From: an uncultured Porphyromonadaceae bacterium
GTDB taxonomy: Bacteria; Bacteroidota; Bacteroidia; Bacteroidales; Muribaculaceae
Assembly: GCA_937989585.1 (NCBI GenBank)
Contig: CALKRW010000006.1
Location: forward strand, 2,864 to 66,863
Direction of reading: 5' to 3'
DNA length: 64,000 nt
The translations under genes were made by a program, and so were the position numbers. This document shows positions 19,070 to 24,152 of this stretch, piece by piece (within the stretch, counting starts at the first letter, position 1; each line of letters starts with the position of its first letter). The notes beneath the pieces are model-generated. The model was not told the origin of the DNA. It made no database searches and saw nothing but the letters and a program-made list of their open reading frames with translations.

Positions 19070-20386
19070 ATGGGCCAACTCGTAGCCATAGTCGGACGTC
19101 CCAACGTCGGCAAATCAACCCTCTTCAACCGCCTCACCCAGACTCGGACCGCAATCGTCGACCCCACCGCCGGAACAACCCGCGACCGCCAGTACGGCAA
19201 GGTCTTCTGGAACGGCAGGGAATTCTCGATCGTCGACACCGGAGGCTGGGTAGTCGGCAGCGAGGACATCTTCGAGGGCGAGATCAACAAGCAGGTCCAT
19301 CTCGCCATCGAGCAGGCCGACGTCATACTCTTTGTGGTCGACACCATGAACGGCGTCACCGACCTCGACGACCATGTGGCCGAGATACTGCGCAAGTCCA
19401 AGAAGCCCGTCCTTCTGGTCGCCAACAAGGTGGACAGCAACACGTGGATATATAACGTGGCGGAATTCTATTCCCTAGGGCTCGGCGACCCGTATCCCGT
19501 CTCCGGCATCAACGGTTCGGGTACAGGCGACCTTCTCGACGAGATAGTCAAGGACCTTCCCGTCGAGGATGACGACACGGAGCAACTCGACGACATTCCA
19601 AAGTTCGCAATCGTCGGCCGTCCCAATGCGGGCAAGTCATCGCTCATCAACGCCTTCATCGGCGAGGACCGCCACATCGTCACCGACATCGCGGGCACGA
19701 CACGCGACTCCATCTACACGCGCTACAACAAGTTCGGCTTCGACTTCTACCTCGTCGACACAGCCGGCATCCGCAAGAAGAACAAGGTCAACGAGGACAT
19801 CGAGTACTACTCGGTAATCCGCTCGATACGCGCCATCGAGGCCGCCGACGTCTGCATACTCATGATTGACGCCACACGCGGCATCGAGGCCCAGGACGTC
19901 AGCATCTTCTCGCTTATCCAGCGCAACAAGAAAGGGCTCGTCGTAGTTGTAAACAAATGGGACATCGCCGAGGACAAGAGCCAGCAGGCCATCAAGCATT
20001 TCGAGGATGCCATACGACGCCGCTTCGCTCCATTCGATGACTTTCCCATAATCTTCGGCTCGGCGCTGACAAAGCAGCGCATCTTCAAGGTCCTCGAGAC
20101 CGCGAAGGACGTCTACGAGAACCGTCGCCGCGTCATTCCGACATCGCAACTCAACAACTACCTGCTCGAGGTCATCGGCGCCTATCCTCCACCCTCGAAC
20201 AAGGGCAAGTACATCAAGATAAAATACGTAACCATGCTCAAGGGCGCGCAGATACCCACCTTCATCTTCTTCTGCAACCTGCCCCAGTGGGTCAAGGAAC
20301 CCTACCGCCGCTACCTCGAGAACAAAATCCGTGAAAAGTGGAACTTCACCGGCACCCCCATCGCCATCTACATGCGCGAGAAATAA
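19070..20386 (+). CDS. der: ribosome-associated GTPase Der/EngA
   Basis: Two tandem GTPase domains ([12 protein letters not shown] and [12 protein letters not shown]) plus a KH-like C-terminus. Confidence 0.95.
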
Positions 20387-20416
20387 CCCCACACCCTATA
20401 ACAGCCCAATACAATA

Positions 20417-20446
20417 AAAGGAGATGCGTTTGCACCTCCTTTTTGT
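20417..20446 (+). terminator. intrinsic terminator after der
   Basis: aggag...tgc / gca...ctcct stem, followed by tttttgtttt. Confidence 0.6.
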
Positions 20447-20505
20447 TTTATAAAGTATAAAGGCAATAACTGTATCTAAAATGCATTTATTCAAAATAAT
20501 TTGTA

Positions 20506-20513
20506 TATCTTTG
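20506..20513 (+). promoter_or_regulatory. Bacteroidota -7 promoter box (TATCTTTG)
   Basis: Exact TAnnTTTG match about 85 nt upstream of the long hairpin and 400 nt upstream of the next CDS. No convincing -33 element. Confidence 0.4.
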
Positions 20514-20597
20514 CATGTATAGACCGCAAAACTCCAACATTGGAAGATGGCGGGACATAAGACATAGTGAATAGCGTTTATCCGCGCTGATTCTTGA

Positions 20598-20793
20598 CTG
20601 CTTGAGATTCTCGCAAAATTTCTATCGATAGTCAGGGACAAAGCAACGGTAGATGTCCACTGATATGTAATTGTTTTGCATTCGACAAGTTATTCCGTGA
20701 GGAATAGAGTCGGTGTATTAATTACATATACAGGCGTAGGGCTTCTTCGTTGCCGTCCGACTATCGATGGGCAATGCGAGAAGCCTCAAGCAG
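20598..20793 (+). other. 196-nt extended imperfect hairpin (candidate structured RNA or MITE-like palindromic element)
   Basis: Complementary blocks found by hand: 20598-20615 with 20775-20793 (9+8 bp), 20624-20633 with 20759-20768 (10 bp), ggac and gcaacg blocks, 20663-20672 with 20720-20729 (10 bp), cgac with gtcg, and tattcc with ggaata. The tip is closed by GTGA (20697-20700), a GNRA tetraloop only on the plus strand. Confidence 0.6.
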
Positions 20794-20913
20794 TGGGACG
20801 GTAACAGATATAGATTCCTACGCCTTTTACACTCTTTTATTTTGCTGTTGCAAACTTAGAGTTTTTCTTTTATCTACATTTATCATTATCCAATAATCTT
20901 TTAATCTTACAAC

Positions 20914-22362
20914 ATGAAAAAAATCCTATCTTTTGTCACCGCTATCTTGCTCACTGGACAGAGTCTTTCTGCTCTTACAGTAACCCGTTTCGTGAGTCCT
21001 ACAGGGACAGGGGACGGCATGACTGAACAAAATCCGACTTCCGATCTTGGCTCGGTGCTTGCTATCGGAGCGAAAGTTGATCTATTAGAATTAAAAGTGG
21101 CACCAGGCTTTTATTCCCTGAATTTACCAGATACTGGAGAGGGTGTTGCATTTAGTAATATAGTGCTTGACGGTACATGGCATAAAGAAGGCTCGTCCGA
21201 CAAGGTGCGCATTAATTATCCAGGTATTGAGTTTATTAATAGCCAGATAACTAATGTGAGTTTTTCGGGAAGTGTTAGTGTAAAGGGGGGAGCCCTTGTA
21301 AATTGTGACGCCGACAGAATAATGACATTAGACCTCAATGGTGGAAACGGAATGTTAAAGAAATGCAATGCCAAAGGATTTCAAATTACTAACTGGGCTC
21401 ACCGGTCCAACACAGAAGCCCAACTCATATCATGTAATACTACGGGAAATGGTGGTTATGGTCTGTCGGGTAAAAACATAGGAACGTTAGCAGTGATAGA
21501 TTGCAACTTTAATAACAATGCAGAAGGAGGTGTGAATATTGACGGATGTAAAAGAGCAAGATTTGAAAATTGTCAGTTTAACTACAATTCCGGCGATGGG
21601 GCATTGCGGTTTGTAGAATTTGATAATTCAGGCATTGTATATTTTGATAAATGTACATTTCTTTACAATAAAGTTACTTCAAATCATTGCTACAACATAT
21701 ATGTTTATAGCAATGCTTCTTTCCGGGATTGTCTTTTCGTTGGAAATACAGAGAAAGATTACGACCGTAAGGGAATAGTCCATCTCGTCAGGCCTGATTT
21801 TAATGTGGTTAATTGTACATTTATTGACAATAAAGGAGCGCTTGAACTTGAAAGTTTTTATCCATCAAGATATCAGATTTCCAACTGTGCCTTCTGGAAC
21901 AATGGACCAACTAATGTTTATACAGATGCCAGGGAAGATGTACCTTTGGAAAGATGTGCCATGGACCATGGTACAGGAGTGTCTGAACTTGATGCACAGA
22001 AAGGCATAATCAGGTTAACTGCAGAAAACAAGGGCTTTGAATTTACCGGAACAGAAGTTGTACTTCAACCAAATTCAATTCTTGTCAACAATGGAGAAAA
22101 TCGAAGTGTATTAGATAAGGATATTTTTTATCACCCTCGTAATGCTTTTGGAGGGACTGACATTGGATGTGTAGAATATGTGACCGGCGAAGGCTTATGG
22201 AAACCAGACTCAATGACAGTAAGTACCTATGATTGCAATTATTATCTTGCAAAGGCAACCGTAGGGTCTAATGACTACTATTGTCTCTTCCCGGAATACC
22301 GCAAAGAAAGTGGTGATTACAATATCCAGAGTTATTTCACAGACTTTATTTATCTCGATTAG
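20914..22362 (+). CDS. secreted right-handed parallel beta-helix repeat protein
   Basis: Signal peptide MKKILSFVTAILLTGQSLSA. Repeated Asn/Gly/Cys-rich turns (CNFNNNAEGGVNIDGC, CQFNYNSGDGALRF) are typical of PbH1 repeats. Lies in an AT-rich islet. Confidence 0.65.
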   Translation: MKKILSFVTAILLTGQSLSALTVTRFVSPTGTGDGMTEQNPTSDLGSVLAIGAKVDLLELKVAPGFYSLNLPDTGEGVAFSNIVLDGTWHKEGSSDKVRINYPGIEFINSQITNVSFSGSVSVKGGALVNCDADRIMTLDLNGGNGMLKKCNAKGFQITNWAHRSNTEAQLISCNTTGNGGYGLSGKNIGTLAVIDCNFNNNAEGGVNIDGCKRARFENCQFNYNSGDGALRFVEFDNSGIVYFDKCTFLYNKVTSNHCYNIYVYSNASFRDCLFVGNTEKDYDRKGIVHLVRPDFNVVNCTFIDNKGALELESFYPSRYQISNCAFWNNGPTNVYTDAREDVPLERCAMDHGTGVSELDAQKGIIRLTAENKGFEFTGTEVVLQPNSILVNNGENRSVLDKDIFYHPRNAFGGTDIGCVEYVTGEGLWKPDSMTVSTYDCNYYLAKATVGSNDYYCLFPEYRKESGDYNIQSYFTDFIYLD

Positions 22363-22662
22363 ATGCCGGTCAAGCCCAAGACTCACTTTAAAAACATTAT
22401 GATTGAGAGGCATACAGGCACCAACGGAGGTTATTTGGTTGATGTCCTTGCGTACCTTCCCGAGCGTGGAGACGGCCCCTGGGTTACTTTGACGGCCGAA
22501 GGTTACAGTTCGATTAAGGAACGACCTGTTGTAAAAGTTGTAGATGGGGATATTAAGTTCATAAAGCAACAGAAAGTAACGCCTAAGAAGAGTACGAAGA
22601 AAGTTGGCAAAACTGGATCTAAACCCTTGCCATCTCGTCGCAAACGTTCAGCCGGCAGATAA
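22363..22662 (+). CDS. small protein with a Lys/Arg-rich tail, function unknown
   Basis: The ATG directly abuts the TAG stop of the beta-helix gene. 99 aa ending KKSTKKVGKTGSKPLPSRRKRSAGR. No family recognised. Confidence 0.45.
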   Translation: MPVKPKTHFKNIMIERHTGTNGGYLVDVLAYLPERGDGPWVTLTAEGYSSIKERPVVKVVDGDIKFIKQQKVTPKKSTKKVGKTGSKPLPSRRKRSAGR

Positions 22663-22696
22663 TATTCAATCCAAAACAGATAGCATTTGAACTTTA

Positions 22697-22740
22697 AGGA
22701 GGATGTATCACATATAACGATGTGATACATCCTCCTTTTT
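22697..22740. terminator. strong terminator hairpin between convergent genes
   Basis: 16-bp perfect stem (aggaggatgtatcaca pairs with tgtgatacatcctcct) with an 8-nt loop, followed by ttttt. Confidence 0.8.
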
Positions 22741-22762
22741 CGATAGTTATGTGGGGAAGGAA

Positions 22763-23038
22763 TTAGTCCTTGAACAGTTCGGAATGGGAACCGAGTCTGA
22801 ACAGCGCAAGCGTATCGTTTTGTTCGTCATACCATATAAGCAAAAAGTCTCCCTCGATATGGCATTCCAAACACCCTGAATAATCTCCTTTCAGAGTATG
22901 CAGACGATATTTTTCGGGTAATGGCATATCATTCCGTAACATATTCAGGACTTGCTGTAGTTCCTTAAGTTTTTTAGGTTGGTTGAGGAATCTCTTTAAG
23001 TCCTTCTTGAATTGTCGCGTATAGCGAAGTTCTTTCAT
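22763..23038 (-). CDS. type II toxin, YafQ/RelE family mRNA interferase
   Basis: 91 aa. HTLKGDYSGCLECHIEGDFLLIWY matches the YafQ/RelE core. There is a 4-nt ATGA overlap with the upstream antitoxin. Confidence 0.85.
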   Translation of the reverse strand: MKELRYTRQFKKDLKRFLNQPKKLKELQQVLNMLRNDMPLPEKYRLHTLKGDYSGCLECHIEGDFLLIWYDEQNDTLALFRLGSHSELFKD

Positions 23039-23286
23039 AAGTCCATGGATTTGAGCATCGCTTCGACGCTCGAGGTGTCAATCGGACCTTCGAGGTTGCC
23101 GGACTTGGCTTCGTTCATGGCTACGATTGTTTCTTCATTTGGTTCATGATATACTGCGTCGAGTAACAGGCCTTCAACATAATTGTTAAGGCTGCGACGG
23201 TCTTTCTGCGCAAGTTCCTTCAGTTTGTCCAAAAGATAGACAGGTAGACGGAACACGTGGGCTTTTTTTTCGAGTGCTATGTCCAT
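23035..23286 (-). CDS. putative antitoxin (RHH-like N-terminus) of the YafQ/RelE pair
   Basis: RLPVYLLDKLKELAQKDRRSLNNYVEGLL resembles a ribbon-helix-helix. The position and overlap are classic for a type II toxin-antitoxin pair. Start set at MDIALEKK, downstream of the promoter box. Confidence 0.65.
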   Translation of the reverse strand: MDIALEKKAHVFRLPVYLLDKLKELAQKDRRSLNNYVEGLLLDAVYHEPNEETIVAMNEAKSGNLEGPIDTSSVEAMLKSMDL

Positions 23287-23305
23287 GATGATATCATTTT
23301 GATTG

Positions 23306-23313
23306 CAAAGATA
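23306..23313 (-). promoter_or_regulatory. Bacteroidota -7 promoter box (TATCTTTG on the minus strand) for the toxin-antitoxin operon
   Basis: Plus-strand caaagata, 20 nt upstream of the ATG at 23286. Confidence 0.55.
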
Positions 23314-23392
23314 AGTCATTTTATAATCACGAACAAATCTTATTCGTAAAATGTTTTTCGAAATTTTATTTTTAGAACAAACAGATAAAAAG

Positions 23393-23425
23393 AAATCCCT
23401 CGAGTTGAAGCACTTCGAGGGATTT
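23393..23425 (-). terminator. intrinsic terminator downstream of the NTP-transferase gene
   Basis: aaatccctcga pairs with tcgagggattt (11-bp stem). In minus sense it is followed by ctttttatc. Confidence 0.7.
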
Positions 23426-23444
23426 ATATTGCGGTATGGATGGC

Positions 23445-24152
23445 TTATTTGTTGAGGAGGAAGGCGCGGGCGGTGGCGATGTCGCCCGCGTGATCGACGT
23501 CGACGATCTTGTCGAAGGCGTCGGCGCGGAGGCGCAGGCCGGCTTCGATGAGTGCGCGCTGGTAGTTGCGCATGCGGCTGACGCCGCGCGACATGCAGTC
23601 CTCGAGAACGGTGACGGCACGGCCTGTCAGTCCGTAGACGCCGCCCGAGATGTATTTCACTCCGGGGAAGGGAGCGTCGCGGAACGCTGTAATCCAGCCA
23701 TCGGCGTCGACATCGATGTAGAGGGGCTTCTCGTCATCGATGAACGAGGTCACGGCCATGTGTCCGTCGGCCTGATCGTCATCGGCGAAGGCGCGTGCGT
23801 AGCGGCGGAACTCGTCTTCGCGGAAGATGGTGTCGACGGTGGTGAGGATGAATTTGTCATCGGGATTCTCGAATATGCGCGAGACCTCGTAGAACGAGTG
23901 CATCGACGAGGGTGTAGACTTGACAACGAGATGCAGGGGTACGGGCAGTTCGAGGGACTCGAGATACTCGCGGACGGCTGTCATCTGCTCGTTGACGATG
24001 ATTGAGATGCGCTCGGCGTCGCAGGAGAGGAATATGTCGATGAGGCGGCGAATCATGGGACGTCCGTCAAGGTCGACCAGGGGCTTGGGAAGGGCCACGC
24101 CTTCCTGCACGAGACGCGAGCCTTCGCCGGCGGCTATTATTGCGTAGTTCAT
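23445..24152 (-). CDS. sugar/alcohol-phosphate nucleotidyltransferase (NTP_transferase fold)
   Basis: N-terminal IIAAGEGSRL...LPKPLV matches the G-x-G-t-R-l...K-p nucleotidyltransferase signature. 235 aa. Confidence 0.8.
   Translation of the reverse strand: MNYAIIAAGEGSRLVQEGVALPKPLVDLDGRPMIRRLIDIFLSCDAERISIIVNEQMTAVREYLESLELPVPLHLVVKSTPSSMHSFYEVSRIFENPDDKFILTTVDTIFREDEFRRYARAFADDDQADGHMAVTSFIDDEKPLYIDVDADGWITAFRDAPFPGVKYISGGVYGLTGRAVTVLEDCMSRGVSRMRNYQRALIEAGLRLRADAFDKIVDVDHAGDIATARAFLLNK

Follow-up and report, generated by a model that had tools for sequence, protein, structure and literature searches.

Two mutually exclusive folds in a conserved leader RNA of the Bacteroidales, a putative transcription attenuator of accessory genes

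Described leader RNAs and the element compared

In trp-type attenuators and in riboswitch expression platforms, four successive segments of a leader RNA form mutually exclusive helices that give two states of near-equal energy; the 3:4 hairpin stands against a U-run, the 2:3 helix sequesters its 5′ half, and the whole is situated between the promoter and the first gene. These traits recur in an element that we analysed in a 64,000-nucleotide stretch of DNA (the window; contig CALKRW010000006.1, positions 2,864 to 66,863 of the forward strand, assembly GCA_937989585.1) from an uncultured Porphyromonadaceae bacterium of the Muribaculaceae, where it lies on the plus strand ahead of a gene for a secreted beta-helix protein. 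Unlike both kinds of leader, the element has no conserved leader peptide and no recognised aptamer. It differs from them, furthermore, in that its putative antiterminator is a rod of ~200 nt with ~23 bp of hypervariable, locus-specific stems (S1 and S2) and with an apex that is likewise hypervariable, and in that the genes behind it are diverse accessory and surface genes, not a metabolic regulon. The mechanism class is known, while the family and its architecture appear to be new; its unusual features are a putative antiterminator in the form of a 200-nt rod, stems that differ from locus to locus, the hypervariable apex and a cargo of accessory genes. No published description of the element was found by sequence string or keyword in open-access text.

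Other described systems resemble the element in part. The LoaP-dependent and EAR-type leaders of Firmicutes are structured RNAs that lie upstream of a terminator and before accessory operons of the polysaccharide or secondary-metabolite type; the element has no sequence or Rfam relationship with them and mostly no adjacent NusG paralogue. With 6S RNA (Rfam 6S and Bacteroidales-1) it has in common a rod-like shape of ~190 nt with internal loops, but it gave no Rfam match at E = 10, has no large central bubble, and is a multi-locus, accessory RNA always placed before a gene. In Bacteroides capsular polysaccharide (CPS) leaders, opsX comprises a pause hairpin and then a non-template DNA hairpin YGCGNAGCR, opsE being CTGCGAAGCATA and the ops of RfaH GCGGTAGC (PMC11685472). 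As in opsX/UpxY and Escherichia coli ops/RfaH, our element is a promoter-proximal leader before accessory surface loci in which a hairpin is followed by a GCG-containing block, and some copies precede upxY-like genes. In contrast, however, the block fits neither YGCGNAGCR nor GCGGTAGC and covaries as an RNA helix, the element spans ~260 nt with two global folds and its own terminator where opsX has ~40 bp, and one conserved sequence extends across families whereas ops is locus-specific. Finally, GibS/FopS (PMC11697453) and the element are both multicopy families of conserved non-coding RNA in gut Bacteroides, each having sigma-ABfr promoters as well as intrinsic terminators; FopS RNAs are short, consist of a single-stranded seed and a terminator hairpin and are deposited in Rfam (PMC11697453), whereas the element has a rod with alternative folds and no cmscan match.

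Conservation of the element and of its two folds

An earlier note on this DNA, made from the sequence alone, had described a -7 box, TATCTTTG, at 20506-20513 and one long imperfect hairpin at 20598-20793 of the leader that follows it, with a GUGA tip. Box and hairpin were both confirmed, the latter with the same stem blocks, and the next coding sequence begins at 20914. The minimum free energy of the hairpin was -94.6 kcal/mol, against a mean of -48.0 (sd 4.3) for 200 dinucleotide shuffles (z = -10.9), none of which was as stable, and the 64-kb window held no other copy or comparable hairpin. The note had argued for a functional plus-strand RNA on the ground that the loop is GNRA on that strand only. 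While GUGA is indeed present at 20697-20700, only 14 of 117 predicted apical loops in the family are GNRA, and since the apical loop is not conserved this argument fails. The preference for the plus strand holds for other reasons: compensatory changes were found in >200 homologues, and many of the pairs are G-U, which become A-C mismatches on the opposite strand. In the window the plus-strand RNA was predicted at -94.6 and the minus-strand RNA at -76.1 kcal/mol, a gap of 18.5, with 8 and 2 G-U pairs, respectively, and the rods of two other loci (L014 and L022) showed a bias to the same strand. The 196-nt hairpin, taken at first as the unit, proved to be the core of a larger functional unit of ~260 nt (20573-20828) that runs from a small 5′ hairpin, hp5, to a U-run; a terminator and a second, competing fold were absent from the earlier account. 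The parts in the window are as follows.

20506-20513, plus strand: -7 promoter box of the Bacteroidota type, TATCTTTG (TAnnTTTG), read from the sequence, with a putative start site
20573-20588, plus strand: hp5, small 5′ hairpin AGCG[UUUAUCCG]CGCU, made by segment 1 in Fold I, alongside the rod
20573-20598, plus strand: segment 1 (X), AGCGUUUAUCCGCGCUGAUUCUUGAC, complementary to segment 2 through the ext5 and A:B helices
20598-20793, plus strand: rod hairpin, Fold I (2:3), from fold energy and covariation; putative antiterminator conformer
20604-20622, plus strand: P-L, local left-arm hairpin GAGAUU[CUCGCAA]AAUUUC, only with the rod open (Fold II)
20631-20658, plus strand: segment 2 (X′), GUCAGGGACAAAGCAACGGUAGAUGUCC, left arm, partner of segment 1 or 3 by three-way covariation
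20659-20732, plus strand: variable apical hairpin with the GUGA loop at 20697-20700, in both folds
20733-20758, plus strand: segment 3 (Y), GGCGUAGGGCUUCUUCGUUGCCGUCC, right arm, partner of segment 2 (rod) or 4 (terminator)
20769-20787, plus strand: highly conserved block GGGCAAUGCGAGAAGCCUC, its GGGCAA and GCC parts unpaired in both folds
20793-20821, plus strand: D′:E, weak hairpin GUGGGA...UCCUAC, remaining when the rod is formed, from covariation
20795-20824, plus strand: segment 4 (Y′), GGGACGGUAAC...UCCUACGCC, which with segment 3 makes the long Fold II terminator hairpin
20825-20844, plus strand: U-run, UUUU (20825-20828) and then ACACUCUUUUAUUUUG, read from the sequence
20914-22662, plus strand: cargo gene for the secreted beta-helix protein (Pfam Beta_helix, E = 7.9e-11), ~85 nt downstream of the unit's terminal U-run

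Homologues of the element proved to be widespread. A homologous rod lies at L014, in another genomic context, upstream of the closest homologue of the beta-helix protein (P0002, 69% identical); it is 72% nucleotide-identical to that of the window, with compensatory changes and conserved flanks. Sliding-window folding of the loci found rods only there and in L022. A pattern made from the conserved right arm and 3′ flank detected at least 119 loci in species-representative genomes, together with 2 viral contigs, and the matches listed were almost all from Bacteroidales (Prevotella, Segatella, Hallella, Xylanibacter, Paraprevotella, Alloprevotella, Bacteroides, Phocaeicola, Muribaculaceae, Alistipes and Barnesiella). 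Carriers include Phocaeicola sartorii DSM 21941, whose two copies both precede upxY-like genes, and also Segatella copri, Paraprevotella xylaniphila YIT 11841 and Xylanibacter caecicola. An independent 5′-side pattern detected at least 120 metagenome contigs, with 98 distinct elements among the matches listed; as GGGCAATGCGA was intact in 82 of these 98, the 3′ conservation is no artefact of the 3′-side pattern. Only 3 genomes appeared twice among the ~80 matches listed with titles. As the earlier note had recognised no named RNA motif, so cmscan against Rfam 15 placed no family on the element, not even with E up to 10 across 20300-21000; at the gathering threshold the whole window gave tRNA only, and in six consensus-like members the element likewise had no match with E up to 1. 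Neither the window copy nor a consensus-like copy matched the plasmid collection. The phage collection held no match to the former, and to the latter a single short fragment, in a 4-kb record lacking annotation, that covered 30% of the query at 79% identity.

The family has a constant order, which from 5′ to 3′ is promoter box, ~50 non-conserved nt, hp5, GUUCUUGAC, left arm, apex, right arm, 3′ flank and U-run. The left arm consists of variable S1, CUUCGCA, variable S2 and then GUCAAGAAC..GCAACGGUAGAUGCC, and the right arm of GGCGUGGGCUUCUGCGUUGCUCGUUC, S2′, GGGCAAUGCGAAGGCCUC and S1′, followed by GUGGGACGAGUAAC...UCCCACGC and the U-run, which in the family is GC and then 5-7 T directly after segment 4. 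The apex is hypervariable (42-134 nt) and not conserved in sequence, though in 108 of 112 members it is predicted to fold into one hairpin, and copies are wholly divergent in S1, S2 and apex.

Pairing was analysed in an alignment of 113 distinct sequences (A2). Fold I, comprising hp5, the rod and the short D′:E hairpin, had 92.9% of cells paired, against 34-46% with slid partners, and 736 double-change cells, against 227 in shuffles (0 of 500 reached the observed value). The compensatory change in homologues that the earlier note had looked to as the mark of a structured RNA was found throughout the rod: S1, S1b, S2 and the middle and upper stems were 84-99.6% paired in A2 and 94-99.5% in the metagenome sample, each pair of S1 and S2 had 27-67 compensatory sequences, and S1b switched between CUUCGCA/UGCGAAG and UCUCGCA/UGCGAGA in 43 sequences. 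In hp5 (columns 29-35 and 66-72) 93.2% of cells were paired, rising to 100% in the metagenome sample, and 5 of its 7 pairs change on both sides (for example GC 93, AU 11, GU 8). D′:E covaries as well, pair 455:485 being UA in 71, CG in 14 and UG in 16 sequences, and CCCGC in E goes with GCGGGA in D′ in 17 of 31, as against 5 of 48 where E is CCCAC. A further pairing that we considered, A:D′, had paired cells yet no covariation and was rejected.

Fold II uses some of the same sequence differently. Segment 1 pairs with segment 2 through the ext5 and A:B helices, enclosing P-L, and segment 3 pairs with segment 4 through F:E, UCUG/CAGA and C:D. This fold was 91.3% paired against 44-47% with slid partners, with 172 double-change cells against 75 in shuffles (again 0 of 500). 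F:E was 98.9% and C:D 98.1% paired; ext5 (columns 31-39 and 187-196) reached 93.5% and A:B (columns 73-101 and 164-173) 83-90%, with 5-15 double changes per pair. Within P-L, which was 91% paired in the metagenome sample, pair 109:126 is AU in 67, GC in 26 and GU in 13 sequences. In F:E, GUGAGG in F is accompanied by CUCAC in E in 11 of 13 sequences, against 4 of ~95 with GUGGG in F, while D′ is unchanged, and compensation is also seen in L062 (GCGUAAGG with CCUUGCGC) and in the window itself (GUAGGG with CCUAC). The two folds meet in a three-way covariation, in which column 170 of segment 2 changes from G to A together with a change from C to U at column 76 (15 sequences) and at column 417 (16 sequences). 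Both folds replicated in the independent metagenome sample, their helices being 88-100% paired against 21-71% with slid partners. Since segments 2 and 3 are each used twice, and since S1, S1b and S2 sit inside the loops closed by 1:2 and 3:4, Fold I and Fold II exclude each other. Judged from these substitution patterns, both folds are under selection.

The predicted energies of the two folds are close, with a family median of -101.3 kcal/mol for Fold I (window -102.8) and -95.0 for Fold II (window -93.1). The 3:4 hairpin has a family median of -40.4 to -40.9 kcal/mol (window -40.4 to -43.1), and its base, GCGUGGG/CCCACGC, is followed by GC and abuts the U-run. As it is long, GC-rich at its base and placed directly against the U-run, it reads as an intrinsic terminator. 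In contrast, D′:E has a family median of only -5.9 kcal/mol, and -2.3 in the window. When the 5′ half was folded alone, to mimic a nascent transcript, 1:2 was predicted in 83-95% of members and P-L in 74%.

Downstream genes and a model of attenuation

The element keeps a constant relation to the gene that follows it. The next open reading frame (ORF) was on the same strand in 181 of the 184 distinct copies listed, at a median of 61 nt downstream (interquartile range 50-81), and a promoter box stood between element and ORF in only 22 of the 181. Upstream, a TAnnTTTG box was present within 160 nt of hp5 in 97 of 113 members, most often 60-80 nt before it (for instance TAGATTTG in L014 and TAAATTTG in L030 and L007). 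The shared strand, the tight spacing and the scarcity of boxes in the gap together suggest that the downstream gene depends on read-through. That the element is a cis-regulatory leader, one of four readings between which the earlier note had not chosen, was thus borne out, but it is not specific to the beta-helix gene, unrelated genes standing behind the element elsewhere. A tie to beta-helix genes was rejected on both sides, as the homologues P0003, P0004, P0005 and P0008 have no element upstream and other cargo follows it at other loci. Among 140 first downstream genes listed, Pfam families included BspA-type LRR_5 (30), NusG/UpxY (4) and DUF6175, Big_2 and putAbiC (3 each), with further domains such as BACON, GtrA, acyltransferase, RHS, fimbrillin and an EF-Tu-like GTPase, and by a rough test ~57% of the downstream proteins had a signal-peptide-like N-terminus. 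A retron was not indicated, there being no reverse transcriptase in the window's island or among the 25 commonest Pfam families of first downstream genes.

One of these arrangements lies on an IMG/VR contig of 85.7 kb (L030, 648-8125), where the leader precedes a 577-aa EF-Tu-like GTPase with C-terminal repeats (GTP_EFTU Pfam match). It is followed by proteins of 334 aa, 648 aa (Hsp70/actin-like, by eye) and 923 aa (P-loop ATPase motifs, by eye), and this gene set may be a module of a defence system or of a mobile element.

The element is conserved, both its folds covary, the folds are exclusive and near-equal in predicted energy, and 3:4 lies at the U-run. We consider it fairly probable, though well short of certain, that it is a bistable leader RNA acting as a transcription attenuator, transcribed from the 20506 promoter and situated before the beta-helix gene. 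During elongation, 1:2 and the apical hairpin would be the first to form. In Fold II, 1:2 and 3:4 would flank the apical hairpin and 3:4 would terminate transcription before the gene. In Fold I, the right arm would instead displace segment 1 and zip into the rod (2:3 with S1, S1b and S2); as the rod sequesters segment 3, only the weak D′:E would be left before the U-run, and transcription would read through into the gene. Were the right arm to wait for segment 4, the terminator would form. The putative roles are therefore 3:4 as terminator, the rod as antiterminator and 1:2 as anti-antiterminator, so that termination would be conditional and the rod would be the read-through state, with the balance presumably set by a conserved cellular factor or ligand. 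Candidate contact sites for such a factor are GGGCAA...GCC, which is unpaired in both folds and so a candidate binding site, the hp5 loop (UUUAC), and the complementary loops of P-L and P-R. This scheme replaces an earlier attenuator model of ours, in which the rod with D′:E was OFF and A:B with C:D was ON, C:D having turned out to be part of the long 3:4 hairpin that ends at the U-run. Processing of the rod by RNase III, of which the earlier note had seen a possible target here, would be compatible with any RNA reading.

Several points weigh against attenuation as proposed. In the full-length thermodynamic ensemble the rod is the dominant form, with a probability of only ~0.01 for Fold II, and hence Fold II must be kinetic or factor-stabilised. 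The window's U-run is shorter than that of the family and interrupted (UUUUACACUCUUUUAUUUUG), and the promoter and 3′ end were both assigned from sequence. No effector is indicated by the element, which contains no recognised aptamer class, nor is there a conserved leader peptide: an ATG-started ORF ending near hp5 was present in only 71 of 111 members and the peptides were unrelated, which makes the ribosome unlikely as the sensor. The covariation counts are inflated by relatedness among the sequences, and part of the 3′ conservation in A2 stems from the search pattern, a point that the 5′-ascertained sample answers. Lastly, as D′:E covaries, the rod state, too, has a hairpin under selection ahead of the U-run, and termination might occur in either state.

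This last point leads to an alternative in which the element is a stand-alone, rod-shaped, trans-acting small RNA (sRNA) of ~300 nt that always terminates at the U-run, its position being incidental or due to co-mobilisation with the cargo. It has its own promoter and a terminal hairpin with a U-run, a covarying hairpin (3:4 or D′:E) stands before the U-run in both folds, and the conserved blocks are unpaired in both, while the locus-specific S1 and S2 could serve as addresses. We nevertheless regard this as unlikely, given the strand, spacing and gap-box figures above, the weakness of D′:E in the window, and the presence of near-isoenergetic exclusive folds of which one is a strong terminator, as is typical of an expression platform. 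An sRNA could also be the by-product of attenuation, namely the terminated transcript.

A second alternative draws on the GCG-containing block, and supposes recruitment of a NusG paralogue of the RfaH or UpxY kind: RNA polymerase would pause at UGCGA(A/G)..GCC just past the nascent hairpin, take up the factor there and go on through the terminator regardless, the folds being secondary. In keeping with this, UGCGAAGGCC, UGCGAGAGCC or UGCGAGAAGCC directly follows the hairpin in the element, the cargo consists of accessory surface genes, the NusG/UpxY genes counted above stand directly downstream, and the opsX-bearing CPS leaders of Bacteroides provide a precedent (PMC11685472). However, the main-type block, UGCGAAGGC, does not fit YGCGNAGCR, as its position 8 is G and not C, and most loci have no NusG paralogue adjoining the element. 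Moreover, the block of L007 is UGCCAGAGCC (UGCCAGAGC; UGCCAG) and is matched by a compensating CUGGCA in the left arm, so that the conserved feature is RNA pairing and not a GCG motif; the 43 CG-to-UA double changes in S1b likewise favour RNA pairing. Recruitment of this kind, though not exclusive of the attenuator model, thus seems to us improbable, and clearly more so than a free sRNA.

Mobility, the locus in the window's species and wider meaning

Truncated copies of the leader were observed at L029:8479-8556, L048:4786-5031, L114:1439-1671, L102:874-974 and L051:3968-4090. In L029 the 3′ fragment adjoins a serine recombinase of 558 aa; the 5′-truncated copies of L048 and L114 are cut at ..|UUUCGCAAC, with a tyrosine integrase just upstream in L048; and L051 has an additional 5′ half 2.1 kb upstream of its full copy. 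These truncations suggest that the leader, much like a tRNA gene, is an attachment site for integrative elements.

In the window, the hairpin lies at the left edge of a low-GC island of ~3 kb (~40% GC against ~58% in the surroundings), which holds the leader, the secreted beta-helix protein, a 99-aa ORF and a YafQ/ParE-type toxin with its antitoxin, and is flanked by der/engA (19070-20386) and an NTP-transferase gene (23445-24152, minus strand). When contigs of one species that encode an identical Der protein were compared, the site between these flanks (window 20387-23444; loci L005-L013) proved to be a strain-variable hotspot with the following variants.

Empty site: L009 and L013, the two genes being ~80 bp apart
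Island A: L001, L002, L006, L008 and L011, the window's island, 99-99.8% identical
Island B: L007, L010 and L012, an operon for a Big_2/RCC1 protein on the opposite strand

L005 has a further arrangement, apparently with an antitoxin remnant. Among the island-B contigs, L007 was checked and has a diverged leader copy of its own, which lies on the minus strand (17292-17030) and 89 nt before its operon. Comparison with the empty sites of L009 and L013 showed no target-site duplication at the island borders.

These observations bear on a third alternative, that the hairpin is a DNA-level palindrome, whether a miniature inverted-repeat transposable element (MITE) or a recombination or replication site, with the RNA fold a side effect. 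Its place at the border of a low-GC insertion island, within an intergenic hotspot of variable content, the truncated copies next to integrases (L029 and L048) and the assemblies that break inside it (L003 and L004) would all accord with this. The MITE that the earlier note had kept open does not agree with a single copy in the 64-kb window, where no near-identical dispersed ones were found, with the absence of any plasmid match and a lone short phage fragment, or with S1 and S2 that diverge and yet stay paired. Many G-U pairs would be A-C mismatches on the other strand, there is no DNA-level rationale for Fold II, terminator and promoter, or for a fixed orientation before genes, and the integrase-linked truncations fit an integration target, as with tRNA genes, and not a transposon. 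We thus hold this explanation to be very improbable. The L003 and L004 assemblies start inside the right arm (equivalents of window 20735 and 20765), and these breaks are probably an assembly-graph effect of the long inverted repeat.

Other features of the locus were also noted. The beta-helix gene of the window is split by a TAG codon at 22360-22362 into ORFs of 482 and 99 aa, while L006, L008 and L011 have a single ORF of 582 aa, with AAG (Lys) at the corresponding codon in L006 and L008; the TAG is a recent nonsense mutation that the window has in common with L001 and L002. At the right end of the island (22763-23319, minus strand) the YafQ/ParE-type toxin (91 aa) and the antitoxin upstream of it (94 aa) are joined by an ATGA overlap, and the pair may stabilise the island. 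A 12-bp hairpin, AAAAGGAGAUGC[GUUU]GCACCUCCUUUU, lies between A- and T-runs at 20416-20443 as the terminator after der, and similar terminator hairpins are present in L005 and in L007, where the hairpin has moved beyond island B.

The secreted beta-helix family (~580 aa; P0001-P0025) recurrently precedes a gene of the caspase-like Peptidase_C14 family (~680 aa), as in L017-L020, L022-L025, L027 and L028, though this partner gene is not in the window's island. In L022 (1694-1882), a rod hairpin of 189 nt (z = -6.6) without detectable sequence similarity to the element follows a TATATTTG box and precedes an operon of seven genes, a beta-helix homologue and Peptidase_C14 among them. The 3′ arm of this rod overlaps a terminator, GGCGUGG/CCCACGCC, that is followed by a U-run, and the rod is possibly an analogous switch, or else a relative at great distance.

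Beyond attenuation at the window's own locus, it is conceivable, though here we are tentative and incline slightly to doubt, that the family represents a riboregulator class of a new kind. As a bistable leader with a 'rod or twin-hairpin' choice, read by a conserved cellular factor or metabolite, it would gate horizontally acquired surface-protein, capsule and defence cassettes throughout the gut Bacteroidales, with S1 and S2 tuning each copy, and, its sequence being conserved, it would also offer phages and integrative elements a site for integration. The cell surface of gut Bacteroidales is highly variable, and the known controls are invertible promoters and the UpxY/UpxZ system. The leader precedes BspA-type LRR, capsule, beta-helix, abortive-infection and other strain-variable cargo in >100 species. 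If the reading is true, this one leader RNA would be a further general layer of control over accessory genes, and it would rank among the most widespread structured RNAs of the gut microbiome still without a name. The element is a testable two-state system with clear mutant predictions, and could serve as a tag for strain-variable surface-gene cassettes and integration hotspots in metagenomes.

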